A stretch of 24,000 nt of DNA from Desulfitobacterium hafniense DCB-2 (GTDB lineage: Bacteria > Bacillota > Desulfitobacteriia > Desulfitobacteriales > Desulfitobacteriaceae), in contig NC_011830.1 of the NCBI RefSeq assembly GCF_000021925.1, positions 222,346-246,345 of the forward strand, written 5' to 3'. A program made the position numbers and the translations under genes. Below, in pieces: positions 945 through 15,561 of this stretch. Numbering within the stretch: position 1 is the first letter of the stretch; each line of letters begins with the position of its first letter. The notes beneath the pieces are model-generated. The model worked only from the letters and a program-made list of their open reading frames with translations. It did no database searches and was not told the DNA's origin.

Positions 945-1060
945 ATTGCTCAGAGACCTCCTTAGATTTTAATGCAAATAGCGTACCAACTTAATTTTAG
1001 ATAATCTGCCGCTATGTCCGAGGATAAGAGAGCATAGTGAGACATTTCTGGGACAATCGA

Positions 1061-1162: not shown

Positions 1163-1178
1163 TGGCACAATAATTGCA
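1163..1178 (+). promoter_or_regulatory. Sigma-54 (RpoN) -24/-12 promoter
   Basis: TGGCAC-aataa-TTGCA matches the TGGCAC-N5-TTGCW consensus exactly, with GG-N10-GC spacing. It lies 87 nt upstream of the first gene of the array and 0.8 kb from a sigma-54 activator gene. Confidence 0.7.
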
Positions 1179-1264: not shown

Positions 1265-2470
1265 ATGATGTTTGCAAAACTAATTTGGCGGAATGCCAAA
1301 AGACGGCTCTGGCAGCAGGGGCTCACCCTGTTTGTCGTCGTAGCCTGCGCTGCCGCCCTGACAGCCGGGATACTGTTGGTCTGGGGCATTGAGAAAGGGG
1401 GCCAAAGTGCCGTCGATAATCTGGGAGCGGATGTTATGGCTATACCGGCGGATGCCCACCTTGAACCAGGTCAGGTGCTGTTTACCGGGGCTCCTGCCAA
1501 TATCTATATGAATTCAGAAGTATTGAAGGAGATTGAGAAGGTGCCCGGTGTGGAAGCCATATCGGCACAATTCTTCAGCCAGACGCTTAATCAGGGCTGT
1601 TGCAGCCTTCCGGAAGAATACCGGCTGGTTGGCTATGATCCACAGACGGACTTTCTGATCAGGGACTTATTGGCGAAGGGAGTGGGCAGGGATTTAAAGA
1701 ACACGGAGGTTATTGTGGGCGGGAATGTGCCTGCTTTTCTAGGGGACCGGGTGGTGGTTTTAGCTGAACCCTTTGATGTTGCCGGTTACCTGGAACCCAT
1801 GGGAGGAAGTATTGACGACACGATCTTTGTGCCCATTGCAACGGCCCGGAGACTGGCCGGAAAAAGTCCCTATTTACAGGAATATTGGCAGGAGGCCGGG
1901 AGCCCGGAACAGTTGGTTTCGTCGGTATTGATTAAAACAAAAGATGGGGCTGATCCGAATCAAGTTGCCAAAGCTATCGATAGGATCAGTGGAATTAAAA
2001 GCGTGGCAGCAGGGAAATTATTTTCCGAACTTAAAGAAGAATTGCTCGTGATTAAAGAAATTCTGCGTTTGCTGGTGGTCATTATTTGCGGCATTACCAT
2101 GGCCTCCCTGGCGTCACGCTATTCCTCCCTGGTACTGGAGAGACAGCAGGAATTGGCTCTGTTGCGGGCACTGGGAACGGAAAGAGGGAACCTATTTAAG
2201 CTGGTCATGCTGGAAACCCTTTGCAGCGGACTGGCGGCTGCAGTCATGGGATGCCTGGCTGGATATGGCTTGGTTCTTTATCTGGCAAAGTCCCTGAGCA
2301 AGCACAGCTCCTTCCCCTTCATGCTGCCTGGGGCGGCTCAGCTTTGTGCCGCTGGCTTGGGGATTATCGCTTTTGTTCTTCTCATCTGCTGTTTAGCCGC
2401 CTTCTGGCCGGCCAGAAGTTCGTCACGCTTGGATCCCGTAACCGCTCTAACTGAAGGAGAGCTGAGGTAG
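1265..2470 (+). CDS. ABC transporter permease, FtsX/MacB-type (4 TM with a large extracytoplasmic domain)
   Basis: 401 aa. It has an N-terminal TM, an extracytoplasmic domain of about 230 aa (containing NQGCCSLPEE), then 3 C-terminal TMs. This topology is typical of the FtsX/MacB/LolC family. GGAGGTG SD upstream; ATG at 1265 or 1268. Confidence 0.85.
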   Translation: MMFAKLIWRNAKRRLWQQGLTLFVVVACAAALTAGILLVWGIEKGGQSAVDNLGADVMAIPADAHLEPGQVLFTGAPANIYMNSEVLKEIEKVPGVEAISAQFFSQTLNQGCCSLPEEYRLVGYDPQTDFLIRDLLAKGVGRDLKNTEVIVGGNVPAFLGDRVVVLAEPFDVAGYLEPMGGSIDDTIFVPIATARRLAGKSPYLQEYWQEAGSPEQLVSSVLIKTKDGADPNQVAKAIDRISGIKSVAAGKLFSELKEELLVIKEILRLLVVIICGITMASLASRYSSLVLERQQELALLRALGTERGNLFKLVMLETLCSGLAAAVMGCLAGYGLVLYLAKSLSKHSSFPFMLPGAAQLCAAGLGIIAFVLLICCLAAFWPARSSSRLDPVTALTEGELR

Positions 2471-2478
2471 GGGGTACT

Positions 2479-3192
2479 ATGGAAATATCGTTAAAAAACA
2501 TTACACACTACTACCGGGATGGGACGGGAGATCAGGTTACCCCCCTAAGAAACATTGACTTAACTATGAGGAGCGGGGATTCTCTCGTGCTCTATGGGCC
2601 GTCAGGTTGTGGCAAGAGTACGCTGTTGTTTATCCTGGGTTGCCTGTTAAGACCCTCGGAAGGACAGGTGGATATAGACGGGCGTTCCCTCCTCCACTAT
2701 GGGGAAAAAGAGTTAGCCGAATTGAGAAATCGGAAGATGGGCTTCATGTTCCAGGCGTGCTATCTGCTTCCCACCTTGACCGTCAAGGAAAATATCATGC
2801 TTCCTTTCTGGATTCAGGGAGGGAAAGCAAGGGATGGCAGGACGGAAAAGAAAACGGTTGAGCTTTTGCTGGAACAGCTGGAGTTGACGGAACGGGCTGA
2901 TTTTTTACCTTATCAGTTAAGCGGCGGCCAGAGGCGCCGGGTGGCTATGGCCAGGGCTTTGGCTAATGACCCGGAGGTGATTCTGGCTGATGAACCCACG
3001 GCGGAACTTGATGAGGAGAAAAAGGACTTTGTGGGAAAGTGGCTGGGGGAGCAGGCCGGAAAAAAGAAGATTGTTGTGGTTGCTACTCACGATCCGCAAT
3101 TAGCGGTTTATGCCGGACGGGTTTATAGCTTAAGTCAGGGGCAGTTACAGGAAAAGATTTTGGGAAAGGGAGCCGTTTATAGCTCAGGATAG
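2479..3192 (+). CDS. ABC transporter ATP-binding protein (MacB/LolD-like)
   Basis: Walker A GPSGCGKST, Q-loop FQ, signature LSGGQRRRV, Walker B ILADEPT, H-loop ATHD. It starts 8 nt after the permease gene. Confidence 0.9.
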   Translation: MEISLKNITHYYRDGTGDQVTPLRNIDLTMRSGDSLVLYGPSGCGKSTLLFILGCLLRPSEGQVDIDGRSLLHYGEKELAELRNRKMGFMFQACYLLPTLTVKENIMLPFWIQGGKARDGRTEKKTVELLLEQLELTERADFLPYQLSGGQRRRVAMARALANDPEVILADEPTAELDEEKKDFVGKWLGEQAGKKKIVVVATHDPQLAVYAGRVYSLSQGQLQEKILGKGAVYSSG

Positions 3193-3223
3193 GCGCTATC
3201 CAAGTGATGGTGAGGTTAAATGA

Positions 3224-3679
3224 ATGGAGGTTAAACTTTTGAACGGAAAAGTAACTAAGGTTATTGGCGGTTTGGGGGCGGCGCTGGGTCTATTGACCGC
3301 CTTGACTCCGTTCCAGCTTGCCCCGGTTTGTCAACGATTGTTGGAACTAACCTCAGGCAAGATGACCCATATGCGCTGCCATTATACAGGCCAAGGGGAG
3401 GTGTTTTTAGGCATAGTCGTTGTTTTGGTCTCCTTGATCTATCTGTTCAACACATCCATTCCCGCTCAAAAAGCCTTGGGTGGTGTGCTGATGATTTTGG
3501 GGTGTGCTGTAATTATCCTGCCTACAAATCTGGGAATTGGCGTCTGCATGAACCCGATGGAGTGCCATACCACCGCCAGAGTTCTCTATGTCCTGGGAAG
3601 TTTGACAATAATTGATGGGTTGGTTGCGGTCTTCCAGGAAAAGCTCCCTGTTTCGCCTTCTAAAGACATTAAGGCTTGA
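3224..3679 (+). CDS. Small 4-TM membrane protein, DUF4418-like, with Cys/Met/His-rich outward loops
   Basis: 151 aa with four hydrophobic helices. By the positive-inside rule, loops PVCQ...MTHMRCHYTGQ and GVCMNPMECHTT face outside. The pattern resembles my memory of the DUF4418 family (PF14387). The family assignment is from recollection, not a search. Confidence 0.65.
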   Translation: MEVKLLNGKVTKVIGGLGAALGLLTALTPFQLAPVCQRLLELTSGKMTHMRCHYTGQGEVFLGIVVVLVSLIYLFNTSIPAQKALGGVLMILGCAVIILPTNLGIGVCMNPMECHTTARVLYVLGSLTIIDGLVAVFQEKLPVSPSKDIKA

Positions 3680-3728: not shown

Positions 3729-4046
3729 TTGCGGGGGTTGGTCACCGGAAAATTAAGCAAGGCTTTAGGGCTCAATATGGTTGTCGTTGGTTTGGTAATG
3801 GGATTTGCTCTTTTTGCATCCTATGCTGTTCCTCTTCCGGAAAAAGCAGAGGCCGCAGGGCAAGCAGGATATCTTACCTTTCAGTCGACCTGCACAGCCT
3901 GCCATACCGTGGATACTGTGCAGAATTATCAAGGTTCTTCCACTTGGCCGGAAATTATTGGCTTGATGAAGGGCTATGGGGCTTTCATGCAAGAGGAAGA
4001 GGAAGCAGAGATTCTTCAGTATTTGGAGGAAGCTTACCCCAGATAA
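3729..4046 (+). CDS. Membrane-anchored monohaem cytochrome c
   Basis: Single CXXCH motif (CTACH) after an N-terminal TM helix (VVVGLVMGFALFASYAV). I prefer the TTG start at 3729, 9 nt after AAGGAGG (3713-3719). The track start at 3612 overlaps the upstream gene by 68 nt. ATG at 3777 is an alternative. Confidence 0.75.
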   Translation: MRGLVTGKLSKALGLNMVVVGLVMGFALFASYAVPLPEKAEAAGQAGYLTFQSTCTACHTVDTVQNYQGSSTWPEIIGLMKGYGAFMQEEEEAEILQYLEEAYPR

Positions 4047-4080
4047 AGTAGGGTTCTAAGGAGGAATGGGGGATTAAAGT

Positions 4081-4314
4081 ATGAGTTTTTTTAATGAAGA
4101 AGGGGATAAGGAAGGTTTTGTGGTTTTGGCACTGGGAATATGGGCGGCCATAACTCTGGTCTTCATGATCGCCAGGAGCTGGGCAGCAGGAAACGCCTAT
4201 TGGGTAGCCATTTTTATGGGGTTAATTTGCTTTGCAGCCGCTTTTTCAGTTTATACATGGAGAGTTTTGATTCTGGACCGTAAAGGGGGTATGGAAAATG
4301 GAGAACAACAATAA
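4081..4314 (+). CDS. Small 2-TM membrane protein of unknown function, translationally coupled to the Rieske gene
   Basis: 77 aa with two hydrophobic helices. AAGGAGG SD at 4059-4065. Its 3' end overlaps the Rieske start by 17 nt. Confidence 0.5.
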   Translation: MSFFNEEGDKEGFVVLALGIWAAITLVFMIARSWAAGNAYWVAIFMGLICFAAAFSVYTWRVLILDRKGGMENGEQQ

Positions 4315-4744
4315 AGGGGAAATATCAAGACGCAAATTCCTCGGCATCATGACCGGGGTACCCTTGGTTTTGAGTGTGGGAACCCCCGCAGTTGCAGTAG
4401 GAAAGATGATCAGTCCCCCCGAGGCCTTAAGGCCCCTTCCTCCGCGAATGGCAATTCTCAAGGAAGATGAACTTTTGGAGAAGCCCAAAGAAATCATCTA
4501 TGATGGCCTTCCCGCTATGATCTTCAAAAAAGGCAATGAATATCGGGCCTTTTCCAGGGTCTGCACCCATCTCGGCTGCACGGTAATGTGGAATGAGGCG
4601 GAGAAACGCTTTGAATGCCCTTGTCATGGCGGCATATTCGATGAAGACGGGAATGTTCTGGAGGGACCGCCGCCCAAACCTTTAACCCGTTTAAGGGCCT
4701 GGGTGGAAGATGGTTATGTCATGGTGCAAAGGGAGGTTGTTTAG
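4298..4744 (+). CDS. Rieske [2Fe-2S] iron-sulfur protein with a Tat signal
   Basis: Twin-arginine motif SRRKFLG. Rieske box I CTHLGC and box II CPCHGG. Confidence 0.9.
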   Translation: MENNNKGEISRRKFLGIMTGVPLVLSVGTPAVAVGKMISPPEALRPLPPRMAILKEDELLEKPKEIIYDGLPAMIFKKGNEYRAFSRVCTHLGCTVMWNEAEKRFECPCHGGIFDEDGNVLEGPPPKPLTRLRAWVEDGYVMVQREVV

Positions 4745-4745
4745 C

Positions 4746-5384
4746 GTGGCGATTGAACCTAAAGAGGTCGGAGTAAAAGACATGTTTAAGGAAATCGCTG
4801 AACATCCTGTCCCCAGGCATGCCCGTAATTTCATATTCTGTTTTGGCGGGATCTCCTTTCTGTTGTTCTTGGTTCAGGTTGTTACAGGTATCGTGCTGGC
4901 GGTTTACTATAACCCGACCATGGAAGGCGCCTATCAGAGCGTGATGTTTATCAATGATGAAGTTTTCATGGGCAAAGCTTTGCGTTCGGTTCATAACATT
5001 GCGGCTAACCTGATGCTGATTATGGTGGTTCTGCATTTCTTGCGGGTTGTGTTTACCGGCGCCTACAAGCCGCCTCGTCAGTTCAATTGGGTAGTGGGTG
5101 TGCTCCTGCTGCTTTTAGTCATTTTATTCTGTTTCACAGGCTATCTTTTGCCGCTGGATCAGGTGGGTTACTGGGCGGCAATTATCGGCACCAAGATATT
5201 GGGGTCAATTCCTATCGTCGGTGATCAGCTCTTGTTGCTGGGCCAGGCCGGAACCAAGATTACGGACCATACCCTGATGAGGTTCTTTATTATCCATATC
5301 GTAGTACTGCCGGTGGTTGTCATAGTGTTGCTGATTGCGCACTTTTTAATGATTCGTAAACAGGGGATTTCCGGTCCACTGTAG
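4746..5384 (+). CDS. qcrB: Cytochrome b, b6/QcrB type (N-terminal four-helix half of cytochrome b)
   Basis: Haem ligands H-x13-H (VHNIAANLMLIMVVLH) and H-x14-H (HIVVLPVVVIVLLIAH). FCFGG Cys equivalent to the covalent-haem Cys of b6 / Bacillus QcrB. The C-terminus AHFLMIRKQGISGPL closely matches Bacillus QcrB. GTG start at 4746 lies 9 nt after AGGGAGG; ATG at 4782 is an alternative. Confidence 0.9.
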   Translation: MAIEPKEVGVKDMFKEIAEHPVPRHARNFIFCFGGISFLLFLVQVVTGIVLAVYYNPTMEGAYQSVMFINDEVFMGKALRSVHNIAANLMLIMVVLHFLRVVFTGAYKPPRQFNWVVGVLLLLLVILFCFTGYLLPLDQVGYWAAIIGTKILGSIPIVGDQLLLLGQAGTKITDHTLMRFFIIHIVVLPVVVIVLLIAHFLMIRKQGISGPL

Positions 5385-5396
5385 GAGGTGATGATA

Positions 5397-5792
5397 ATGG
5401 ACATCAATAAAAAGGAATTGGATAAGGATACGGTACCCTTTTTTCCAAACCATTTAACCACTGAAGTGAGTGTAGCCCTTGGTATTCTTGGCGTTGTTTT
5501 CTTTCTGGCTGGAGTAATCCCCAAGGACTTGGGGCCGCCGGCCAATCCTGTCATGACCCCTGCCCATATTGAACCGGATTGGTATTTTATGTGGCTTTTT
5601 GGTCTGTTAAAGATTGTCCCTCAGCTTTTGGGCTTGCTGATTCCGGCCCTTCTGGTTGTAGGCGTCATCTTATTGCCATGGCTGGATAAAAGTACATCCC
5701 GCCGGCCTGAAGAAAGGCCATGGGTTATTATCGGAGCGGAGATCGTACTGATCCTAATGGTGGTTTTAACGTATATTGCCTTGCATTTTTGA
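5397..5792 (+). CDS. Cytochrome b6f subunit IV-like protein (C-terminal half of cytochrome b), not fused to a cytochrome c domain
   Basis: PFFPNHL motif and 3 TM helices typical of PetD and the QcrC N-terminal domain. ATG at 5397 lies 8 nt after AGGAGG. The track's GTG at 5388 lies inside the SD. Confidence 0.85.
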   Translation: MDINKKELDKDTVPFFPNHLTTEVSVALGILGVVFFLAGVIPKDLGPPANPVMTPAHIEPDWYFMWLFGLLKIVPQLLGLLIPALLVVGVILLPWLDKSTSRRPEERPWVIIGAEIVLILMVVLTYIALHF

Positions 5793-5849
5793 CACTGTCA
5801 GATTTTCTTTATTGTGGATTAGGAGTTGGACGCGTTTGGGGGTGAATCA

Positions 5850-6389
5850 ATGACGGGAAACGGGCGGAATAATCCATCGTTTCACTTGCTTTCAATTTTT
5901 TGCATCTGGCTGGGGATGGGTTTCTTGGTAGGGATCACAGGGAGTGTAATTGCAGCACCCCATTATGTGCTGCCGGATGATCGTGAGGCTAAGCTGGTTT
6001 ATGCATCAGGTTTGCAGCCTCAGCAGTCTGCAGGGACTCAAAGCAGCGAGCCCAGCGGTGCCTCAGGAACAGCCAGAGAAGGAGAGCTCTTTCTAAAAAA
6101 AGGCTGCACCCAGTGTCATGAAGTCAGTTATTACGGAATAGCCGGCGGTGTGACCGGTCCCGATCTTACCAAGGCGTATGGGGATGTGCCGGATCGTTTT
6201 GGAAAGACCCTCGCTGAGTTTTTACAAGAACCGGAAGGGACAATGGCTGAGATGTTTGTCAGAATGGATATTACAGATGATGAAAAAAATCAGGTTCTCG
6301 AATTATTAACGGCAGCCGGCGGAGAGACGGCCCAGCAACCAGCCGGTGAGGAGAATGAAAGTACGGAAAATACCAATAACCCGGAGTAA
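5850..6389 (+). CDS. Membrane-anchored monohaem cytochrome c with an acidic low-complexity C-terminal tail
   Basis: N-terminal TM (LLSIFCIWLGMGFLVGITGSVIA), a single CXXCH (CTQCH), and the tail AGGETAQQPAGEENESTENTNNPE. ATG at 5850 is preceded by GGGGGTG. Confidence 0.8.
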   Translation: MTGNGRNNPSFHLLSIFCIWLGMGFLVGITGSVIAAPHYVLPDDREAKLVYASGLQPQQSAGTQSSEPSGASGTAREGELFLKKGCTQCHEVSYYGIAGGVTGPDLTKAYGDVPDRFGKTLAEFLQEPEGTMAEMFVRMDITDDEKNQVLELLTAAGGETAQQPAGEENESTENTNNPE

Positions 6390-6441: not shown

Positions 6442-8340
6442 GTGGAAAAAGGACTGTTTAAGAAGATTGTATTGTCCCTGGCAGGGCTGCTGGTTGGCCT
6501 GGTCATAGCTGTTTACTTATCCGCCCAGCTTAATCCCGAGGCGGAGGCGGCTGCTGCCTTCGGCGGGAAAAATATATCTGTGGACGGAGTGCCTGACGAT
6601 GTGGTGCAGGCGGCTCTGAAAACCTATGTGCCACCCGGTCAGCTGGATGAGTATTATATGTTTGCCTCAGGGGGCCATTCCGGTAATGTCTTCGTCTATG
6701 GTGTGCCATCCATGCGGCGGATTAGAACAATTCCGGTATTTACCCCCGAGTCCGCCGTGGGGTATGGCTGGACGACGGAATCCAAGGAAATGCTTGGCGA
6801 ATGGAGCTGGGGGGATGTCCATCATCCTGCTTTGAGCGAGACCAAGGGAGATTATGACGGGCGCTGGCTTTTTGTCAATGATAATGCCAACAGCAGGGCC
6901 GCCCGGATCGATCTGGATTCCTTCAGGACTAGTCAAATTTTGGATATTCCTAATATTTATGGACCCCACAGCGCTGTATTTATGACACCTAACTCCGAAT
7001 ACTTTATGCTGGGGTCCCGCTTTGCCGGACCGATACCCTATGGGACCTATTCTCCCATTGAGAATTTATCAAAAGATTATAATTGTGTTTTAGCAGCAGT
7101 AGCTATCGACCCCAATAATGGTGAGATGAGCGTGGGGTGGGAAGTGCTGATGCCCCCCTGGTCCTTCGATTTATCGGATGCCGGTAAGCTGGACAGTGAG
7201 GGCTGGGCCTTTCTGACGACCTATAATACTGAGGAGGCCTATGAGCTGCTGGAGGTCAATGCCTCCCAGCGGGAAATGGATTATGTGGTCGCTTTAAATT
7301 GGAAAATGCTTGAACAGGCGGCCAATGAAGGAAAATACAAAATAGTTGATGGCGTCAAAATGATTGATCCCCTGGATGTACCGGGCTCCGTCTACTTGGT
7401 CCCGGCTATGAAGAGCCCCCATGGTGTGGATGTCACACCGGATGGAAAGTATTTTATTGCTAACGGAAAAGTGGCTCCGGTAGCTACCGTATTCAGCTTT
7501 GAGAAATTCAAGGAATGCATTGACAACAAAGACTTCCAGGGCGAGGAACGAGGTTTCCCGGTTGTCAATTACGAGAAAGTAAGAGTGGCGGAAGTGCCGG
7601 TGGGCTTAGGACCATTGCATACTCAATTTGACGGCAACGGTTATGCCTATACCACCTTATTCATCGACAGTACTATTGCCAAATGGAGTCTGGACACCTT
7701 TGAGGTTGTCGACGTTACTCCGGTACATTATTGCCCGGGTCATCTGTGTGCTGCTGAGGGAGACACTGTCTCTCCGGACGGCAAGTATCTGGTCTCCTTA
7801 AATAAGCTGGCCAAGGATAAGTTCTTGTCCGTTGGGCCATCCCATCCCGAAAGCGCCCAGCTGATTGATTTAACCACGGATAAGATGAAAATCTTAATGG
7901 ATGTTCCCACAGATCCTGAGCCTCACTTCGCTCAGATGATTAAAGCCGATAAGATTACGACCTGGGAAGTTTTTGAGAAGGATCCCAGTCAGCCGGGTGC
8001 TGTCTATGAGAAAGAAAATGCCCGCATTGAACGGGATGGCAACAATGTCACAGTCTATCAAATGGGCTTCCGCAGCCGCTATTACCCGGATCATGTGGAG
8101 GTCAATGAAGGGGATCATGTGACCTGGTATTTAACCAATACGGATTTCGATGAGGATATCACCCATGGCTTTGGTATTTGTCTGTATGACCTTAATGCGG
8201 AAGCACAACCGGGTGAGACGATAAAATTTGAATTTGTCGCCGATAAAGCGGGAGTCTATCCTTTCTATTGCACCAACTTCTGCTCGGCCCTCCATCAGGA
8301 AATGCAGGGCTGGTTTATTGTCAAACCAAAAGGCCTATAA
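6442..8340 (+). CDS. nosZ: Nitrous-oxide reductase NosZ, clade II (Sec-dependent)
   Basis: Seven CuZ His contexts: DVHHPAL, YGPHSAV, KSPHGVD, GPLHTQF, CPGHLCA, PEPHFAQ. CuA site HGF...CTNFCSALHQEM (C-x3-C-x3-H-x2-M). The N-terminus MEKGLFKKIVLSLAGLL lacks a twin-arginine motif. There is no C-terminal haem domain. GTG start lies 9 nt after AGGGAGG. Confidence 0.95.
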   Translation: MEKGLFKKIVLSLAGLLVGLVIAVYLSAQLNPEAEAAAAFGGKNISVDGVPDDVVQAALKTYVPPGQLDEYYMFASGGHSGNVFVYGVPSMRRIRTIPVFTPESAVGYGWTTESKEMLGEWSWGDVHHPALSETKGDYDGRWLFVNDNANSRAARIDLDSFRTSQILDIPNIYGPHSAVFMTPNSEYFMLGSRFAGPIPYGTYSPIENLSKDYNCVLAAVAIDPNNGEMSVGWEVLMPPWSFDLSDAGKLDSEGWAFLTTYNTEEAYELLEVNASQREMDYVVALNWKMLEQAANEGKYKIVDGVKMIDPLDVPGSVYLVPAMKSPHGVDVTPDGKYFIANGKVAPVATVFSFEKFKECIDNKDFQGEERGFPVVNYEKVRVAEVPVGLGPLHTQFDGNGYAYTTLFIDSTIAKWSLDTFEVVDVTPVHYCPGHLCAAEGDTVSPDGKYLVSLNKLAKDKFLSVGPSHPESAQLIDLTTDKMKILMDVPTDPEPHFAQMIKADKITTWEVFEKDPSQPGAVYEKENARIERDGNNVTVYQMGFRSRYYPDHVEVNEGDHVTWYLTNTDFDEDITHGFGICLYDLNAEAQPGETIKFEFVADKAGVYPFYCTNFCSALHQEMQGWFIVKPKGL

Positions 8341-8395
8341 AGCTCTCCAGGGCTTTATAGAAGAATCGAGAGGGATCCTTGCTCAGGGATCCCTC
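8335..8395 (+). other. Two tandem perfect 9-bp stem-loops at the nosZ 3' end, without a U-tract
   Basis: Hairpin 1: ctataaagc (8335-8343) / gctttatag (8352-8360), spanning the nosZ stop codon. Hairpin 2: gagggatcc (8370-8378) / ggatccctc (8387-8395), followed by a C-run rather than a T-run. Confidence 0.6.
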
Positions 8396-8426
8396 CCCCC
8401 CTAATCGATAGGAAAGGCGGTTAACC

Positions 8427-9026
8427 ATGGATTTTGTAAGAAAGCTTTTCAAGGGAAACCTTAATCTCATCGGGAGAATCATGTTTGGTGCTGCCGGCTT
8501 AATTCTCTTAGCCTCTCTCTTTTTGCCTTGGTGGCATTTAGACTTGGTGGCACCCCAATATCCGGAGGGTTTGTCCGTGATTGTCTATCCGGACAAACTG
8601 GATGGCCGCATCGATATTATCAATAATATTAATCACTATATCGGCATGAAGTGGATCAGCGAAGAAGATTTCCCGGAATTTCAGGTTATTACTAAAGTTG
8701 CCTATGTGATCATTGGCCTGGCTCTTATTACCGCCCTGGTGAAAAAAAGGTGGCTTGCCTGGCTGACCGCCGGTCTGGGTGCTGTGGGAGGCATGATCGG
8801 GGTGTATGACCTATGGCGCTGGCTGCGGGATTATGGAACCCAGCTGGATCCCATGGCGGCAATTAAGATCGATCCCTTCACCCCGCCGATTATCGGCACC
8901 AATAAGCTTGCCAATTTTATTACCTACACAGGATTTAATTCAGGCGGATATTTGCTGGGACTGAGCATTATCCTGATGCTGCTGGCTGCTTGGAGGTTTA
9001 AGGAACATGAAAAGCAAAAAGAATAG
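8427..9026 (+). CDS. nosB: NosB-like integral membrane protein (clade II nos accessory)
   Basis: 199 aa with four hydrophobic helices. It sits immediately downstream of a clade II nosZ, which is the hallmark position of nosB. The call rests on position and topology, not on recognised motifs. Confidence 0.65.
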   Translation: MDFVRKLFKGNLNLIGRIMFGAAGLILLASLFLPWWHLDLVAPQYPEGLSVIVYPDKLDGRIDIINNINHYIGMKWISEEDFPEFQVITKVAYVIIGLALITALVKKRWLAWLTAGLGAVGGMIGVYDLWRWLRDYGTQLDPMAAIKIDPFTPPIIGTNKLANFITYTGFNSGGYLLGLSIILMLLAAWRFKEHEKQKE

Positions 9027-10512
9027 GCGCTGCTTTTGGCTGAGTCTGTTTCTTTTCCTGTGGATCATTCCGTTATCAGCTCATGCCGCTACCCTGGAAG
9101 TTCAAGGAGGCGGCTCGGCGGAGAGTATTCAATCTGCCCTGGCAAGGGCTGCTCCCGGGGATACTATTCATGTTTATAGCGGGACCTACGTGGGAAAGAT
9201 TGTGATCGATAAGGCGGTATCCCTCATCGGAATTGGTATGCCGATTCTTGATGGGGGAGGTGAAGGAGATGTGGTCAGCATTAAAGGGGATGGAGTGACC
9301 TTTAAAGGGTTTCAAGTCATGGGCAGCGGCAAAAGATTGCAGGACTCCGATGCGGGGATCAAGCTCTATTCCGCCGGCAATGTCATTGAAGATAACAAGC
9401 TGACCAATAATCTCTTTGGGATGTATCTGCTGAAATCTCCTCATAATACGCTCCGCAATAATACGATTATCGGCAGACCTGCCAAAAATAAGCTGCAAGC
9501 ATCAAAAAAAGACGAGGCTGGGGAGGCCGGCACCTATGACATTTTGCCTAGTTTTGAAGGGGAGAGCGGTGACGGAATTCATCTTTTTGCAGCATCCCAT
9601 AATTTGATCGAGAATAATGAGATTACGGATACCAGGGATGGCATCTACTTCAACTATGCTCACGATAATCGGCTTTTGTATAACCATATTGATGGGGTGC
9701 GCTACGCCATTCACTATATGTATTCTGATGATAATTACTTTGAGGGAAATATTGCGACCAATAATGTGGCCGGAGCGGCCCCCATGTACTCCAAAAGAAT
9801 AACCTTCCGTGAGAATGTTTTCGCCTATAACCGTGGTCACCGCTCTTTCGGAGTGCTGTTTTCCAATTGCAACGACTGTCTGGCCGAGGGGAATGTTTTT
9901 TTCGGCAATACCAGGGGGGCGCTCTTCGATGTGTCCTACCACAATATCTTCCGCAATAATTTGGTAGCCGCCAACGATATCGGCATCGATCTGATTTCCA
10001 GTTCGGGATTCAATACATTTACAGAAAATAATTTTATGGACAATATGGAGCAGATCGCTTTCCGGGCAGGGAGGATTGGGGAGGGGAATGTGTTCTATGA
10101 GGAGGGGACGGGCAACTATTGGAATGACTATCGGGGATTCGATCTGGATCAGAACGGGATAGGTGATACGCCCTATCTGACAGGAGATATTTTTACTTAT
10201 TTAATGAATAAAGCGCCTGCTGTGCGTCTTTTCTTAAACAGTCCCGCTGCTAAAGCTTTGGAGTTTGCCGAAAACATGTTTCCGGTTATAGAAATCCCTA
10301 AAGCTGAAGATGCATATCCTTTAATCAAGCCGGTGGCGATAGAGATTAATGGGCAGTTTCACATCGAGAAGAATCAGGTTTCCAATAAGGTCTTTGGTGC
10401 TTATTCCCTGCTTATGCTCCTCATAGCAGGGATGATAACCGCCCGGGCCTTTGGGGTGAGTTCCCAGGGCATTAAACGGGTGGAGAATTATTTGAGAGGA
10501 GGCCAAAAATGA
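9007..10512 (+). CDS. nosD: NosD, beta-helix (CASH/NosD repeat) copper-delivery protein of the NosDFY complex, with a C-terminal TM anchor
   Basis: Signal peptide ending SAHA|A. Repeated beta-helix turns (NNxIxxNxxG-type: IEDNKLTNN, LRNNTIIG, IENNEITDT, FEGNIATNN, FRNNLVAAN, FTENNFMDN). C-terminal hydrophobic helix VFGAYSLLMLLIAGMITARAF. Overlaps nosB by 20 nt. Confidence 0.9.
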   Translation: MKSKKNRRCFWLSLFLFLWIIPLSAHAATLEVQGGGSAESIQSALARAAPGDTIHVYSGTYVGKIVIDKAVSLIGIGMPILDGGGEGDVVSIKGDGVTFKGFQVMGSGKRLQDSDAGIKLYSAGNVIEDNKLTNNLFGMYLLKSPHNTLRNNTIIGRPAKNKLQASKKDEAGEAGTYDILPSFEGESGDGIHLFAASHNLIENNEITDTRDGIYFNYAHDNRLLYNHIDGVRYAIHYMYSDDNYFEGNIATNNVAGAAPMYSKRITFRENVFAYNRGHRSFGVLFSNCNDCLAEGNVFFGNTRGALFDVSYHNIFRNNLVAANDIGIDLISSSGFNTFTENNFMDNMEQIAFRAGRIGEGNVFYEEGTGNYWNDYRGFDLDQNGIGDTPYLTGDIFTYLMNKAPAVRLFLNSPAAKALEFAENMFPVIEIPKAEDAYPLIKPVAIEINGQFHIEKNQVSNKVFGAYSLLMLLIAGMITARAFGVSSQGIKRVENYLRGGQK

Positions 10513-11051
10513 GTCGCAAGATAATGGTGGTTTTGCTTTCTCTCTGGTGTTTATTCCTTACAGGATGTTCGTCAGGAGACGCTGCCGGGACTCCCCGGGA
10601 AATTGACCCTACTATTGATATTTGCCCCGTCTGCAGGATGAGTGTCATTGATGAGCATTTTGCGGCCCAGATTATTGACAGTCAGGGGCAAGTTGAGATT
10701 TTTGATGATATAGGATGTATGTCGATCTTTATGCGAAGATTGGAAGCGGGGGCACAGGATAGTATTTTAGCCACTTATGTCAAAGATTTCCAGAACATGG
10801 AATGGATCCAGGCCCAGGAGGCCTTTTATGTACAAGGCCGGATCGATACTCCTATGAGTTTTGGAATCGTAGCCTTTGCAGCCGAGGAGACGGCCCGGAA
10901 ATTTGCCCAAGAGGTGGGAGGGAAACAGCTGACCTGGGAACAGGTTCTGACAGAGCCCTTAACCATCGGCTTGGATATAGAATTTAATCAGGAAGATTTT
11001 AATGTCCAGGACCTGGATACAGGAGAAATGCGGGAAGAGAGGGGAAATTAG
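10509..11051 (+). CDS. nosL: NosL copper chaperone lipoprotein
   Basis: Lipobox LFLTG|C SS. CPVCRM and DDIGCM motifs typical of NosL. ATGA start/stop overlap with nosD. Confidence 0.85.
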   Translation: MSRKIMVVLLSLWCLFLTGCSSGDAAGTPREIDPTIDICPVCRMSVIDEHFAAQIIDSQGQVEIFDDIGCMSIFMRRLEAGAQDSILATYVKDFQNMEWIQAQEAFYVQGRIDTPMSFGIVAFAAEETARKFAQEVGGKQLTWEQVLTEPLTIGLDIEFNQEDFNVQDLDTGEMREERGN

Positions 11052-11888
11052 ATGCAGCTGATCAATGTAGTGACCATAGCAGAAAAGGAACTATTGGAAT
11101 CCATACGCAGTAAATGGTTGGGTACATTTACCGTGGTTTTTGCTTTAATCGCCCTTCTGGTTTCTTTTTTTGGTTTGTCCAGTCTTGGGGTTGGTGGGCA
11201 GCAGGGATTTAACCGGGTCACGGCCAGCCTTTTGAATCTGGTGCTGTATTTGCTGCCCTTGATTGCGCTTGTGATGGGCTCGGCGACGGTAGCCGGTGAA
11301 AAGGAAGCCGGCTCCCTTCACGTTCTCCTCACCCAGCCCATTGATAAAGCTGAAGTCATTATCGGCAAGTTCGGCGGTTTAGCCCTGGCTTTAATTGCTT
11401 CTATTCTGGTTGGCTTTGGTGGGGCGGGAGTCGTGATCGCCTGGAAAACAGGGTCCATCAATATTACGGATTATCTGATGTTTGTAAGCTTATCTATGAT
11501 TTTAGCCATGGTATTCCTCAGTATCGCTATACTCATTTCTGTCATCGTCTCGCGAAGAGCTCAGGGGATCGGTTTGGGGATTTTTATTTGGTTTTTAATG
11601 ATTTTAGTTTATGATTTTTTAGCTATAGGGGTGGCGGGCTTATCCAATGTATCTGTTATTATCCCCTTATTGCTGCTGCTTCTGCTGGCTAATCCGGCCG
11701 ATATGGTACGTGTACTGGTCATTTTGCAGCTTGGCGGTGAAGAAACCTTTGGACCTACGCTGGTCGCTTTGACGAGGATGCTCACTCAGGGATCGGGGGA
11801 ACTTTTATTATATGGAGCCCTTCTGATTTGGATGATCATACCTCTCCTGATTGCGGCAATTTTGTTCGGCCGCAAACAGGATTATTAG
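11052..11888 (+). CDS. nosY: NosY, ABC-2 type permease
   Basis: 278 aa with six hydrophobic helices. It lies between nosL and the NosF ATPase gene. Its ATG immediately follows the nosL stop. Confidence 0.8.
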   Translation: MQLINVVTIAEKELLESIRSKWLGTFTVVFALIALLVSFFGLSSLGVGGQQGFNRVTASLLNLVLYLLPLIALVMGSATVAGEKEAGSLHVLLTQPIDKAEVIIGKFGGLALALIASILVGFGGAGVVIAWKTGSINITDYLMFVSLSMILAMVFLSIAILISVIVSRRAQGIGLGIFIWFLMILVYDFLAIGVAGLSNVSVIIPLLLLLLLANPADMVRVLVILQLGGEETFGPTLVALTRMLTQGSGELLLYGALLIWMIIPLLIAAILFGRKQDY

Positions 11889-11899
11889 GAGGGGATCCT

Positions 11900-12811
11900 A
11901 TGGAAGTTATCAATACTTTAGAAGTGAAATATGCCCAGAAGTTTTATGGTCCGTTTCAAGCCGTTAAGGATATTAACTTAACAGTGGAAAAAGGGGAAAT
12001 CTATGCCTTGTTGGGGCACAATGGGGCCGGAAAATCAACATTAATAAAAATGATTCTAGGGTTAGTAAAAGCCTCCGCCGGGATGATCGAAATTGAGGGG
12101 TTAAATTATGATGCCAAGAATAAGGAGATTAAGAAAAGGGTAGGTTATTTGCCGGAGAGAATGAATTTTTATGATAATTTAACGGCATGGGAGACGATAT
12201 CGTTTTACGCCAAATTAAAAGGGATCACCAGGAAACGATGTGAAGAGGTGTTGGAACAAGTTGGGTTAAGGGAAGCAGAACACCGGAGAGTGGGGACTTT
12301 CTCCAAAGGAATGCAGCAGAGATTAGGCTTGGCCCAGGCTATTATCCACAAGCCCGATTTGCTTGTATTGGATGAACCCACAACCGGGTTGGATCCTATC
12401 GGCATCCTGGAATTAAAGGCAATGATTCGGAACTGGAACAAGGAAGGGACAACCATCTTATTTTCCTCACATAATCTTAATGATGTGGAAGAACTGGCCC
12501 AGCGGATTGGTATTATGAATCGCGGGGAAATGATTGCTCAAGGCAGCTTGGCAGAATTACAGGATAGGTTGGGTCTGCCCACGAAAATAAAAATAGATCT
12601 TGCTGTGATTCCGGTTGATTTAGAGGAAATACTCGTGGGAAAGCGAATTAAAACATTTCAGCTTGAAGAAAAAACTGTAAGCATTGATTGTCCAAAAGAC
12701 AAGAAGACCCAAGTCATAACAGCTGTAATGGATGGGATGCTGAAAGTACTTGATCTGCGTTTGGAAGAACCGGGACTGAACAGTATTTATCAGAATATCA
12801 TGGCAGAATAA
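11900..12811 (+). CDS. nosF: NosF, ABC ATPase of the NosDFY system
   Basis: Walker A GHNGAGKST, signature FSKGMQQRL, Walker B LLVLDEPT, H-loop SSHN. ATG at 11900 follows AGGAGGGG. The track start at 11828 overlaps nosY. Confidence 0.85.
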   Translation: MEVINTLEVKYAQKFYGPFQAVKDINLTVEKGEIYALLGHNGAGKSTLIKMILGLVKASAGMIEIEGLNYDAKNKEIKKRVGYLPERMNFYDNLTAWETISFYAKLKGITRKRCEEVLEQVGLREAEHRRVGTFSKGMQQRLGLAQAIIHKPDLLVLDEPTTGLDPIGILELKAMIRNWNKEGTTILFSSHNLNDVEELAQRIGIMNRGEMIAQGSLAELQDRLGLPTKIKIDLAVIPVDLEEILVGKRIKTFQLEEKTVSIDCPKDKKTQVITAVMDGMLKVLDLRLEEPGLNSIYQNIMAE

Positions 12812-12818
12812 ATTATAT

Positions 12819-12847
12819 TTGACAATCACCTCAGAACCCAATATAAT
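12819..12847 (+). promoter_or_regulatory. Sigma-A promoter of the infC-rpmI-rplT operon
   Basis: TTGACA (12819-12824), a 17-nt spacer, then TATAAT (12842-12847). Both hexamers match consensus. Confidence 0.7.
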
Positions 12848-12854
12848 GTTAATG

Positions 12855-12980
12855 TTCAAGTAGAAGCCATCCGCTTCTCACCTCATGGCTTGAGTCGATG
12901 AGGTATCTTCGGGTCCTGAGCCGCTGTGCTTGCTCATGATTTGTATGGAAGACGGGTGGAACTCTGCCCGTCTTTTTTGT
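12855..12980 (+). promoter_or_regulatory. Ribosomal protein L20 leader-type attenuator upstream of infC (Firmicutes type)
   Basis: Structured leader between the promoter and infC with competing helices: AAGCCAT (12863-12869) / ATGGCTT (12884-12890), and CCTCAT / ATGAGG. It ends in an intrinsic terminator. The position matches the known Bacillus L20-leader (Rfam RF00558), but I did not check it against the model. Confidence 0.55.
12951..12978 (+). terminator. Leader (attenuator) terminator upstream of infC
   Basis: Stem gacggg (12951-12956) / cccgtc (12967-12972) followed by TTTTTT (12973-12978). It lies upstream of the infC SD. Confidence 0.7.
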
Positions 12981-13006
12981 GTGATTTTTTTTGGAGGTGG
13001 TTCGTT

Positions 13007-15184: not shown

Positions 15185-15304
15185 ATGTCACCCGCAGAGT
15201 GGTTATGGAAGATTTTTGAGGCAACCGGTTCCCCAAATGCCTACTTGCTGTATAGGCAGTACACTCTGAACAACAATCTGGCAATGAATAAGAAAATGCA
15301 ATGA
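15185..15304 (+). CDS. Small YqzL-family-like protein (39 aa), below the ORF-track length cutoff
   Basis: ATG at 15185 is preceded by AAAGGTGGG. The product is MSPAEWLWKIFEATGSPNAYLLYRQYTLNNNLAMNKKMQ. The W-K-[IL]-F-x-x-T-G-x-x-x-x-Y-L-L-[FY]-[KR] pattern resembles my memory of Bacillus YqzL (PF14006). Confidence 0.5.
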   Translation: MSPAEWLWKIFEATGSPNAYLLYRQYTLNNNLAMNKKMQ

Positions 15305-15329
15305 TCAGGTTAAAAGGAGCTTTTCTTTT

Positions 15330-15561
15330 TCAGGGAGGTTAAGCCTAAGACTGAAAGCTTAACCAAGAGGAGTCCTCAGTTCCGGCTGATGCCGGAGGTG
15401 TTAAATTTCCCCTGTGAGTGGTTTGCTGAACTAAGAATTAGGTAAACCCGGTCTCCACCGTTAGCGGAGAAGGAAGCTGCGGCTCATCATTGAGCTGAAC
15501 CAGGGTGGTACCGCGGGAGTTATTTCTCGTCCCTTTTATAGGGATGAGAATTTTTGTTTTT
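15330..15561 (+). promoter_or_regulatory. T-box riboswitch leader controlling pheS-pheT
   Basis: T-box consensus GGGTGGTACCGCG at 15503-15515, preceded by the stem III hairpin GCTCA-tcat-TGAGC. Terminator ttctcgtccc (15524-15533) / gggatgagaa (15541-15550) plus a T-run to 15561. The 5' boundary is approximate. Confidence 0.85.

Follow-up and report, generated by a model that had tools for sequence, protein, structure and literature searches.

A DUF4418 and FtsX-type ABC transporter module tied to clade II nos clusters of Desulfitobacterium hafniense and its relatives: a candidate extracytoplasmic copper relay

The nitrous oxide reductase genes of Desulfitobacterium hafniense DCB-2 are headed by three genes encoding a MacB/FtsX permease, a LolD/MacB-like ATPase and a DUF4418 protein (hereafter the triad, positions 1265-3679), which run into the clade II nos cluster within the window analysed here, a 24,000-nucleotide stretch of contig NC_011830.1. 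Comparison of loci indicates a solid physical linkage of the triad to nos, and probably one by regulation, in the Desulfitobacterium/Desulfosporosinus/Thermanaeromonas lineage, and on the same comparison this triad is one clade of a wider, uncharacterised three-gene module. Our best explanation, to which we give a probability of about 40%, is that the triad is a type VII ABC relay for a soft metal, Cu(I), recruited into the nos regulon. The proposal builds on the family assignments, the unity of the module, its clade-specific nos linkage, the architecture of promoter and activator sites, and residue conservation. N2O reductase is the sole known biological sink of a potent greenhouse gas, and Gram-positive clade II reducers, acid-tolerant Desulfosporosinus among them, are of applied interest. 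The triad is a concrete candidate for a part in how monoderm anaerobes supply, outside the membrane, the sulfide and the roughly 12 Cu that go into each NosZ dimer.

The triad comprises open reading frames at 1265-2470 (401 aa), 2479-3192 (237 aa) and 3224-3679 (151 aa), all on the + strand and separated by 8 and 31 nt; a gap of 49 nt then leads to a TTG start at 3729, with AGGAGG before it, of a 105-aa cytochrome c. This is the gene order and spacing that a sequence-only reading of the region had given. The electron-transfer genes on the + strand (3729-6389), assigned by Pfam and NCBIfam matches and syntenic in all nos-type loci, encode this cytochrome c (3729-4046), a 77-aa membrane ORF (4081-4314), a Rieske protein (4298-4744), a cytochrome b (4710-5384), a cytochrome b C-terminal subunit (5388-5792) and a second cytochrome c (5826-6389). 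The nos genes follow on the same strand (6442-12811; Pfam nos_propeller, Cupredoxin and NosL, NCBIfam NosD at E 1e-115), in the order nosZ (6442-8340), nosB-like (8427-9026), nosD (9007-10512), nosL (10509-11051), nosY (11052-11888) and nosF (11828-12811). Divergent to the triad, a gene on the - strand (328-879) encodes a 183-aa lipoprotein with the lipobox LFVSGC, for which the Pfam search gave no matches; the gene is kept at the same position in nine of the ten nos-type loci, and no Cys, His or Met of the lipoprotein is invariant among those compared. Next to it lies the 3' end of a gene for a sigma-54 enhancer-binding response regulator with a Fis-type HTH (46-327, + strand; Pfam HTH_8, E 1.7e-8), which has 47% identity (tblastn) to the sigma-54 response regulator of locus L001. 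The complete upstream block, found on a D. hafniense metagenome contig (L013), encodes a corrinoid protein, URO-D, a GAF histidine kinase and the sigma-54 regulator.

The permease and the ATPase belong, by their sequence matches, to the type VII ABC (MacB/FtsX) superfamily. The HMM searches proposed by the sequence-only reading (PF02687, PF00005 and PF14387) confirmed the FtsX, ABC and DUF4418 families, and its description of an FtsX/MacB permease with an adjacent Cys pair beside a LolD/MacB-like ATPase was borne out by Pfam, NCBIfam and the location of the motif. In the permease, the FtsX domain covers residues 270-388 (PF02687, E 6e-16, 59 bits against a cut-off of 25.5) and the MacB_PCD outer domain residues 20-240 (PF12704, E 2e-14, 54.8 bits against 27). 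By hydropathy, TM1 spans residues 21-39 and TM2 260-287, with the large outer domain between them, and the N-terminus, which carries five Lys/Arg residues, is placed inside. The vicinal pair C112-C113 sits in the outer domain, in the TM1-TM2 interval, within the segment NQGCCSLPEE. The motif, TLNQGCCSLP in the window, recurs as 'TLxxxCC' in every DUF4418-linked FtsX protein that was aligned or inspected, i.e. in eight nos-clade loci and in all six distant linked ones, and is missing from four unlinked FtsX paralogues of the same loci. The nearest solved structures are LolE, LolC, LolF and MacB, which match in the TM domain only. In a weak alignment with LolE, the Cys pair falls into the membrane-distal subdomain, which makes a contact between the pair and the short DUF4418 loops uncertain. 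The ATPase (Pfam ABC_tran, E 8e-33) has all its motifs intact, i.e. Walker A GPSGCGKST, the Q-loop, the LSGGQ signature, Walker B ILADEPT and the H-loop ATHD, and its best NCBIfam matches are LolD, MacB and FtsE. Assignment to a named equivalog was rejected on NCBIfam scores for LolCE (47 against a cut-off of 362), MacB (14.5 against 966), Gram-positive FtsX (23.5 against 225) and LolD (188 against 308 bits). By analogy with the superfamily, the expected mode of action of the two proteins would be mechanotransmission to substrates at the membrane surface or beyond it, without transport across the bilayer.

The third protein matches DUF4418 (PF14387) at E 6e-30 and 104.3 bits, against a cut-off of 27, over 116 of 117 profile positions, and the Pfam search matched it to no other family. 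An AF2 model (pLDDT 82, pTM 0.75) contains helices at 7-32, 51-75, 79-98 and 113-136. On hydropathy, charge bias and AF2, the two loops that hold the segments PVCQ, MTHMRCHYTGQ and GVCMNPMECHTT are outside the membrane, in agreement with the earlier description of a four-TM protein whose outward loops carry soft ligands. The ligand residues are C36, M50-x-C52, C108 and M112-x-C114, together with H49, H53 and H115. The DUF4418 family comprises 619 sequence clusters, and conservation was counted on 146 representatives: C36, C52, C108 and C114 are invariant, and the methionines nearly so (M50 in 140, M112 in 124). The three histidines, which stand next to the Cys/Met ligands, are invariant inside the nos clade, and loop His is conserved only there. 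Thus, of the loop residues whose conservation had been put forward as a test, the Cys and Met hold family-wide and the His do not hold outside the nos clade. In members with an expanded loop 1, Met makes up 15% of the loop (98/648 residues), against a family background of 4.9% (p ~1e-22), and the loop repeats, of the SMEGMSHG type, include SMEGMSHGSMEGMSHG and MDNMDMSGDTDMNMD. The protein of the window has short loops and four Met only, with HMRCH and CMNPMECH as its sole motifs of this sort. No PDB relatives of DUF4418 were found by sequence or fold, and a profile search of PDB sequences gave no matches at E up to 10.

The linkage of these genes to nos is conserved. The full order of triad, cytochromes, Rieske/cytochrome b and nosZBDLYF is kept in all ten independent loci with a DUF4418 protein of at least 50% identity, which include Desulfitobacterium, Desulfosporosinus, Thermanaeromonas and Bacillota MAGs, and it holds at divergence down to 50-62% identity. 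The claim that the three genes form one conserved unit tied to nos was thus upheld. The triad proteins diverge in step with NosZ, D, Y and F, their pairwise identities being correlated at r 0.91-0.96, and the D. youngiae genome keeps the triad attached to nos despite replacement of the upstream regulator block. The linkage is confined to part of clade II: a cluster whose NosZ is 55% identical (L014) lacks the triad, as does the Geobacillus/Bacillus type of nos cluster (PMC3475470). Published descriptions of the present nos clusters, as found in the literature searched, do not include the triad, and the suggestion that it is undescribed in nos clusters agrees with this search.

The regulatory signals at these loci point in the same direction. 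A recognisable promoter had been reported upstream of the permease gene; it is present at 1163-1178 (+ strand), and its type is sigma-54, not sigma-70, as a perfect TGGCACAATAATTGCA (TGGCAC-N5-TTGCA). It would serve the triad and, in this genome, the nos genes too. A sigma-54 promoter precedes FtsX in every nos-type locus and in no non-nos DUF4418 locus. The divergent lipoprotein gene has a sigma-54-type promoter of its own at 973-988 (- strand; TGGTACGCTATTTGCA, one mismatch to TGGCAC-N5-TTGCA), with counterparts in L001, L003, L006, L007, L022 and L023. A palindrome (1061-1076; GGGACATTGATGCCCC, GGGACAT-N2-ATGYCCC) lies upstream of the triad promoter, about 100 nt from its -24 element; on placement and conservation it is likely to be an upstream activator site for the sigma-54 regulator. 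Occurrence does not add to this, because its single match in the window is at chance level (1.08 expected; at least one in 68 of 100 shuffles). Across the nos-type loci, the palindrome has 12 matches with at most two mismatches, all of them in the lipoprotein/FtsX or DUF4418/cytochrome c intergenic regions, and at the same threshold it has none in seven non-nos loci. Promoter and palindrome occur as a pair upstream of FtsX in all nos-type loci, and a second such pair precedes the cytochrome c gene in L001, L004, L005 and L006. This architecture, of which we found no published description in the literature searched, would delimit the regulatory unit to which such nos clusters belong.

Whether the triad shares a transcript with nos differs between lineages. 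Between DUF4418 and the nos genes, four related lineages carry a second sigma-54 promoter as well as a strong terminator; the D. hafniense window has neither there. A hairpin-plus-T scan of the + strand found five weak sites between 1265 and 12811, where the sequence-only reading had seen none; all lie within coding sequence, and none falls at a gene junction. The scan total of 12 is below the shuffled expectation of 16.6 +/- 4.5, and the best hairpin at the 3679/3729 junction reaches only -9 kcal/mol and has no U-tract. The earlier proposal of triad-nos co-transcription is therefore plausible for D. hafniense and would not extend to the four lineages that separate both units, which would make it a feature of the Desulfitobacteriaceae, where the triad unit and the nos unit seem to be fused into one operon. 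Common to all lineages would be one regulon, not one transcript, and the triad appears to be switched on together with the nos genes.

Beyond the nos clusters, DUF4418 adjoins FtsX and ABC genes in six of seven distant loci, and the DUF4418/CC-FtsX/ABC module is widespread in anaerobic monoderm bacteria. The neighbourhood survey that had been suggested thus found the triads not to be nos-specific. The distant triads stand in P19/FTR1 iron-uptake clusters, in clusters with an SsuA-type importer and radical-SAM genes, or alone. Two metagenomic loci have the DUF4418 triad directly downstream of a P19/FTR1 cluster, three distant contexts pair an SsuA-type importer with a BioB/HydE-like radical SAM enzyme, and one is a RiPP-like cassette. 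The latter four have no evident copper connection. A cysteine-desulfurase-like (Aminotran_5) gene, along with SsuA-family sulfonate-type importers, is found beside some distant triads, and no cop, CsoR or CopY genes or operators were found beside the seven distant DUF4418 loci.

We propose that the permease, the ATPase and the four-TM DUF4418 partner would assemble into one type VII ABC complex, whose working surface, facing outward from the membrane, would be made up of thiol and thioether ligands. The permease would contribute the vicinal Cys pair on its mobile outer domain, and DUF4418 a pseudo-symmetric C...M-x-C / C...M-x-C site where helices 2 and 4 leave the bilayer. ATP-driven movement of the outer domain would hand on a soft ligand, in the most likely case Cu(I), through exchange of ligands, first from the DUF4418 site at the membrane surface to the Cys pair and then to NosL, NosD or a similar acceptor. 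Copper for the CuA and CuZ sites of NosZ would thereby be supplied or buffered outside the cell. One clade of the module would have been recruited to the sigma-54-controlled nos regulon in the Desulfitobacterium/Desulfosporosinus/Thermanaeromonas lineage and, in Desulfitobacteriaceae, joined to the front of the nos operon. Met/His repeats like those of the expanded DUF4418 loops are characteristic of Cu(I)/Ag(I) sites outside the cytoplasm, as in CopA/PcoA, CopB, CueO, Ctr1 and CusF, and soft metals are relayed by vicinal Cys pairs on mobile segments in MerT and MerA. We infer formation of the complex, the identity of its ligand (copper), the direction in which this is passed on and any need for the triad in N2O respiration; handling of Cu or S by the triad is likewise a proposal, for which the added support for Cu(I) is circumstantial. 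A NosL-NosDFY route to NosZ exists in studied organisms, and a second copper system may therefore be redundant. Counter to the copper reading, remoter clade II clusters work without the triad (L014; PMC3475470), and in four lineages it would form a separate transcript. The short loops of the window protein with their few Met, the weak LolE alignment, the distant contexts with no evident copper connection and the lack of cop, CsoR or CopY beside the distant triads count against it as well. A further-reaching form of the proposal, in which the module is a new class of ATP-driven extracellular Cu(I) relay that metallates exported copper proteins, a 'metallochaperone-loading' type VII ABC machine of anaerobic Gram-positives, seems to us doubtful; the nos clade would then be a required, sigma-54-induced maturation factor, overlooked so far, for the clade II NosZ of Desulfitobacterium, Desulfosporosinus and Thermanaeromonas.

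Other explanations were weighed against the Cu(I) relay. The triad could be an ordinary exporter or immunity pump of the MacB type, acting on a peptide, RiPP, antimicrobial or membrane-damaging compound, hitch-hiking beside nos and with structural cysteines, in keeping with the good scores of the ATPase against bacteriocin and darobactin exporter ATPases, the radical-SAM or RiPP-like genes near several distant family members, the triad's own terminator and promoter in four lineages and the many non-nos contexts of the DUF4418 family. We regard this as unlikely, given that nos linkage holds down to 50-62% identity in 10/10 loci and outlasts an upstream rearrangement, that the triad carries a nos-specific sigma-54 promoter and palindrome which non-nos triads lack, and that the cluster holds no precursor peptide gene. 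Moreover, anaerobic Firmicutes generally avoid Cys in exported protein segments, and the six invariant outward Cys therefore fit a function rather than structural disulfides. Another possibility is an extracytoplasmic thiol-redox device: during N2O respiration the triad, as a DsbB/VKOR/CcdA-like relay or reductant presenter, would maintain the reduced state of the NosZ CuA cysteines, of the thiol of NosL or of the cytochrome c CxxCH motifs outside the cell. DUF4418 does resemble DsbB/VKOR in topology, both being bundles of four membrane helices whose outward loops each hold a pair of Cys, and VKOR chains are among its top fold matches, at a non-significant level (Foldseek E 0.3, TM 0.31). However, CxxC is absent from all three triad proteins, DUF4418 lacks the quinone-site residues, and no significant fold or sequence likeness to any oxidoreductase was found. 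We know of no precedent for the ATPase-driven disulfide relay that would be needed, and the Met-rich loop expansions and the Met of M-x-C would be left unexplained. We therefore consider such a device quite unlikely, even though the DUF4418 triad adjoins a P19 cluster and P19 clusters hold thioredoxin-like genes in Gram-negatives, with FMN-binding genes at that place in Gram-positives (PMC8238504).

A relay of sulfide or persulfide that supplies the bridging sulfide of CuZ at the outer face of the membrane appears improbable. Cys pairs are able to carry persulfides, and some distant triads lie beside SsuA-family importers and an Aminotran_5 gene; to our knowledge, the source of the CuZ sulfide is still to be accounted for. 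Against a sulfur relay, a rhodanese, TusA or DsrE-type partner is missing, the Met-rich loops point to metal and not to sulfur, and the P19/FTR1 contexts have no sulfide requirement. Highly improbable is a role of the triad as the sensory partner of the upstream two-component system, reporting flux in a BceAB-like manner, and not as a maturation factor. FtsX-type transporters are co-sensors in Bce systems, and the conserved histidine kinase/sigma-54 regulator block directly adjoins the triad in nine of the ten loci; the kinase, however, is a soluble protein whose N-terminus is a Cys-rich GAF and which lacks an intramembrane-sensing architecture, L022 keeps the triad at nos though kinase and regulator are gone, and non-nos triads have no consistent kinase of such a type.

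Should the Cu(I) relay be correct, type VII ABC mechanotransmission would extend to soft-metal handling, and DUF4418 and the Cys-pair FtsX permease subfamily gain a first functional handle. The triad shares with MacB, LolCDE, FtsEX and HrtBA a four-TM permease with an outer domain between TM1 and TM2 and a separate LolD/MacB-like ATPase; it differs by the invariant vicinal Cys pair in the outer domain and by its obligate DUF4418 partner, which none of the characterised type VII ABC systems has. YknWXYZ of Bacillus subtilis is a MacB-type pump that needs the four-TM accessory protein YknW. It is likewise a Gram-positive FtsX-type ABC system with a small four-TM membrane partner, but the triad has no membrane-fusion protein and the Ykn system no Cys/Met signature. 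NosL is a lipoprotein Cu(I) chaperone, and NosDFY-NosL, encoded in the same cluster, is ABC-driven and matures NosZ outside the cytoplasm, a role like the one proposed for the triad. As a permease of the ABC-2 type and an ATPase of the DrrA-like kind, NosY and NosF are not homologous to the triad proteins, and the triad differs further in being absent from most nos clusters (L014; PMC3475470). Like MerT and MerA, the triad has a vicinal Cys pair on a mobile segment. It also has M-x-C motifs, and some DUF4418 members have long Met/His/Asp-rich repeats in an extracytoplasmic loop, which recall the Met/His-rich Cu(I) motifs of CopA/PcoA, CopB, CueO and Ctr1; the resemblance to these proteins lies in ligand chemistry only, with no sequence homology. 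FtsX-FtsX-ABC genes also occur in P19/FTR1 clusters, i.e. those of the Campylobacter cj1658-1665 type and the Gram-positive FMN-binding variants (PMC8238504, PMC6083913), where they stand beside an exported copper-containing metal-uptake protein. Their own FtsX proteins have no Cys pair, and the DUF4418 triad is an extra, separate module there. Two contexts of the module involve exported copper proteins, NosZ in the one and P19 in the other (PMC8238504), in keeping with the soft-metal reading.

The three genes heading the nos operon proved to be as the sequence-only reading had described them, in their ORFs, gaps and families. The first (1265-2470, + strand) encodes a 401-aa permease matching Pfam FtsX and MacB_PCD, the second (2479-3192, +) a 237-aa ATPase matching ABC_tran and the third (3224-3679, +) a 151-aa protein matching DUF4418, all above the Pfam gathering scores. 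The gaps within this triad are 8 and 31 nt, and 49 nt separate the DUF4418 gene from the start of the first cytochrome c gene, a TTG at 3729 with AGGAGG ahead of it. The ATPase is nearest to LolD, MacB and FtsE and the permease to LolC/E (NCBIfam), all with scores far under the equivalog cut-offs. Hydropathy, charge bias and an AlphaFold model (pLDDT 82, pTM 0.75) place the Cys/Met/His-rich loops of the DUF4418 protein and the Cys pair of FtsX outside the membrane, as had been proposed. The DUF4418 protein shares 99% identity with one from Desulfitobacterium hafniense, and a D. hafniense-like metagenome contig (L013) matches the entire region, its proteins being 97-100% identical; the G+C content of the window is 43-55%.

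Our neighbourhood survey was small, covering 10 nos-type and seven distant loci; three genome loci came from the alignment of close DUF4418 proteins and seven from a NosZ scan of metagenomes. The 10 independent nos-type loci are the window, Thermanaeromonas sp. C210, Desulfosporosinus nitroreducens, D. youngiae, a second youngiae-like contig and five metagenome or MAG contigs. Wherever the DUF4418 protein was at least 50% identical (10/10 loci), the order was FtsX, ABC, DUF4418, cytochrome c, a 77-aa ORF and Rieske, continuing through cytochrome b, cytochrome b-C, cytochrome c and NosZ, B, D, L, Y and F; a minus-strand lipoprotein gene, kept in 9/10, heads this 16-gene order. The triad proteins of the other nos-type loci are 50-63% identical to those of the window, with NosD, B, L and F comparable, and pairwise identity among the triad proteins is correlated (r 0.91-0.96) with that among NosZ, D, Y and F. 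In D. youngiae, other chromosomal genes stand in place of the regulator block and lipoprotein gene upstream, and the triad, promoter region and nos genes are still joined. A more distant cluster, L014 (NosZ only 55% identical), contains cytochrome c, NosZ, B, D, Y and F and has neither the triad nor the Rieske/cytochrome b genes, a layout matching the nosCZ-ORF-nosDYF type of Geobacillus and Bacillus (Heylen and Keltjens 2012, PMC3475470). Since all loci at or above 50% identity keep synteny while the L014 cluster has no triad, linkage to nos is a property of one clade, stable within that clade, and not of the whole DUF4418 family. The adjacency to nos raised from the sequence thus holds in 10/10 close loci and is not shared by the distant triads, which lie in P19/FTR1, SsuA/radical-SAM or solitary contexts.

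Literature searches on DUF4418, on nosZ with FtsX, on the D. hafniense locus tags and on sigma-54 with nos returned no description of the triad, and among the papers searched DUF4418 was named in one gene table only. For He et al. 2024 (PMC11096178) the cluster starts with the cytochrome and Rieske genes, Kim et al. 2012 give nosZDFYL alone, and no paper found, Heylen and Keltjens 2012 included, places the triad in such clusters, in agreement with the earlier impression that it is undescribed there. In the searched text of the PMC8238504 supplement, DUF4418 does not occur within P19 clusters. Type VII ABC systems are themselves already known; what is new here is the partner family, DUF4418, and the link to nos. 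The complete triad and nos cluster of D. youngiae (L022; CM001441.1, 4563024-4583473), in which zinc-ribbon proteins take the place of the regulator block, is at odds with the statement of He et al. 2024 that, among sequenced Desulfosporosinus, nos genes occur in D. meridiei only.

A profile search recovered 619 DUF4418 clusters. Four cysteines (C36, C52, C108 and C114) are invariant in 146/146 representatives, and M50 and M112 are nearly so, which places one M-x-C motif at the start of helix 2 and another at that of helix 4; H49, H53 and H115 are invariant in the close subfamily only. Conservation of the loop ligands extends family-wide for Cys and Met and fails for His outside the close subfamily. 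Seven distant members (23-41% identity) could be placed on contigs, and in 6/7 of these loci FtsX and ABC genes adjoin DUF4418: two triads sit behind P19/FTR1/FMN-binding iron-uptake clusters, three accompany an SsuA-type importer and a radical-SAM enzyme, and that of Peptacetobacter hiranonis stands alone. The seventh member, which is Met-rich, lies beside a radical-SAM/PqqD cassette without FtsX. In a Bifidobacterium longum transcriptome, DUF4418 adjoins an ABC permease gene and both genes change together (PMC7701253). The FtsX motif TLxxxCC was present in all DUF4418-linked permeases aligned or inspected (eight nos-clade loci and 6/6 distant ones) and missing from four FtsX paralogues whose genes lie a few kb from the linked ones in these loci. 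Because six outward cysteines and two methionines co-vary across FtsX and DUF4418, the sequences argue that the two proteins work together. No extra Pfam domain was found in longer DUF4418 members, which were possible fusions. In three non-nos loci (L019, L020 and L021) a BioB/HydE-like radical SAM enzyme and an SsuA-family binding-protein ABC importer recur ahead of FtsX-ABC-DUF4418, with a large Aminotran_5/NTP_transf_3 protein and a type III glutamine synthetase nearby.

The strongest new clue to the function of the module is the expanded loop 1 of some DUF4418 members, which is 15% Met (98/648 residues, p about 1e-22) with repeats including SMEGMSHGSMEGMSHG and MDNMDMSGDTDMNMD. Met-rich repeats of this type mark extracytoplasmic Cu(I)/Ag(I) sites in CopA/PcoA, CopB, CueO and Ctr1; in MerT and MerA, soft metals are passed on by vicinal Cys pairs located on mobile segments; and in type VII ABC proteins ATP hydrolysis drives the movement of an outer domain. 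Exported copper proteins, NosZ and P19, occur in two of the triad contexts. On these grounds we favour, as an inference, a reading in which the triad would act in the nos-linked lineage as an ATP-driven Cu(I) relay for NosZ metallation. However, no cop genes lie near any triad, the SsuA/radical-SAM contexts are unexplained by copper, and NosL-NosDFY may make the triad redundant; CopY and CsoR operator patterns were not found upstream of the distant triads.

Rival readings would make the triad a hitch-hiking exporter, a thiol-redox device, a sulfur relay or a sensor. No solved structure resembling DUF4418 by sequence or fold was found, VKOR and CD20 being among the four-helix matches that fell short of significance, and the triad proteins contain no CxxC motif. 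A BceAB-like sensor was rejected because the kinase encoded upstream is soluble and the triad persists where that kinase is gone. The loop-1 insertions, 40-90 residues of Met/Asp/Gly/Ser/His repeats, were seen in P0242 (non-nos locus L024, 10001-10660), P0239, P0155 and P0121. P0242 does not adjoin FtsX/ABC; its neighbours form a PqqD/radical-SAM-SPASM/54-aa peptide/HprK-like (ScmC-like) cassette, and a sigma-54-like TGGCAT-N5-TTGCT precedes it.

A perfect sigma-54 promoter (TGGCAC-N5-TTGCA, 1163-1178, +) precedes the triad. FtsX has a sigma-54 promoter ahead of it in all nos-type loci but in none of the non-nos triads. The palindrome GGGACAT-N2-ATGYCCC (1061-1076) had 12 matches with at most two mismatches in nos-type loci, all 12 in lipoprotein/FtsX or DUF4418/cytochrome c intergenic regions, and none in seven non-nos loci. 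Four loci, L001, L004, L005 and L006, have a strong terminator (-19 to -23 kcal/mol with a U-tract), the palindrome and a second sigma-54 promoter behind the DUF4418 gene. For the window, L003, L007, L012 and L022, DUF4418 and cytochrome c are 28-140 nt apart, with only weak hairpins (-7 to -11 kcal/mol) and no promoter between them. Co-transcription of the triad with nos, inferred earlier, is thus supported for D. hafniense and contradicted in the four terminator-bearing loci. Because those loci have a terminator and second promoter and the window has neither, two sigma-54 units in one regulon would be the ancestral or an alternative state, apparently fused in Desulfitobacteriaceae. The cytochrome c leaders after the second promoter (L001 10463-10800, L004 10421-10775, L005 6392-6859, L006 10433-10733) carry conserved complementary segments, AGTGAAAGGTTTC ... 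GAAACCTTTCACAA, perfectly complementary in L001, which may form a 5'-UTR RNA stem; they are missing in the window, where the gap has collapsed. Short-gap Desulfosporosinus-type loci retain a palindrome-like site, GAGACAAGAATGTCCC, between DUF4418 and cytochrome c (L003 8041-8056, L012 7337-7352, L007 about 10470), with no sigma-54 promoter detectable beside it; it would be a relic or else an additional site for regulator binding.

The window opens with the 3' end of a sigma-54 activator (response regulator) gene with HTH_8 (46-327, +). Apart from D. youngiae, every locus with sequence upstream has genes for GAF histidine kinase, URO-D-family and corrinoid-binding proteins ahead of this activator gene. 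The four-gene block (L001 2432-6794, L013 1-3877, also L003-L007, L012 and L023) encodes a corrinoid-binding protein with a DxHxxG motif, an MtaA-like URO-D-family protein, a sigma-54 response regulator and a GAF histidine kinase that is soluble and Cys-rich at its N-terminus. As N2O oxidises cob(I)alamin, the block could, as pure speculation, be a corrinoid-based N2O sensor. The 183-aa lipoprotein (328-879, -), divergent to the triad and with its own sigma-54 promoter (973-988, -), matches no Pfam family; a role as metal chaperone was rejected because it lacks conserved Cys, His or Met.

Downstream of the triad follow genes for cytochrome c, the 77-aa ORF, Rieske, cytochrome b, a cytochrome b C-terminal subunit and a second cytochrome c, then nosZ, nosB-like, nosD, nosL, nosY and nosF, and the housekeeping genes infC, rplT, pheS and pheT. 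The 77-aa ORF (4081-4314, +), between the first cytochrome c and Rieske genes, has two predicted TM segments and no family match, is kept in all nos-type loci at 40-57% identity and may encode a small subunit of the Rieske/cytochrome b complex. At its longest, the nosF ORF (+) would begin with a TTG at 11828, a 60-nt overlap with nosY; since homologues are 307-324 aa, the true start is probably the ATG (MEVINTLEV...) near 11900. Directly 3' of nosF lies a perfect sigma-70 promoter (TTGACA-17-TATAAT, 12819-12847, +), and behind it an L20 leader ahead of infC (12852-12985, +; 54.9 bits). A T-box leader precedes pheS (15292-15537, +; 82.9 bits), both leaders being slightly under their Rfam gathering scores (58.7 and 93); these are ordinary features.
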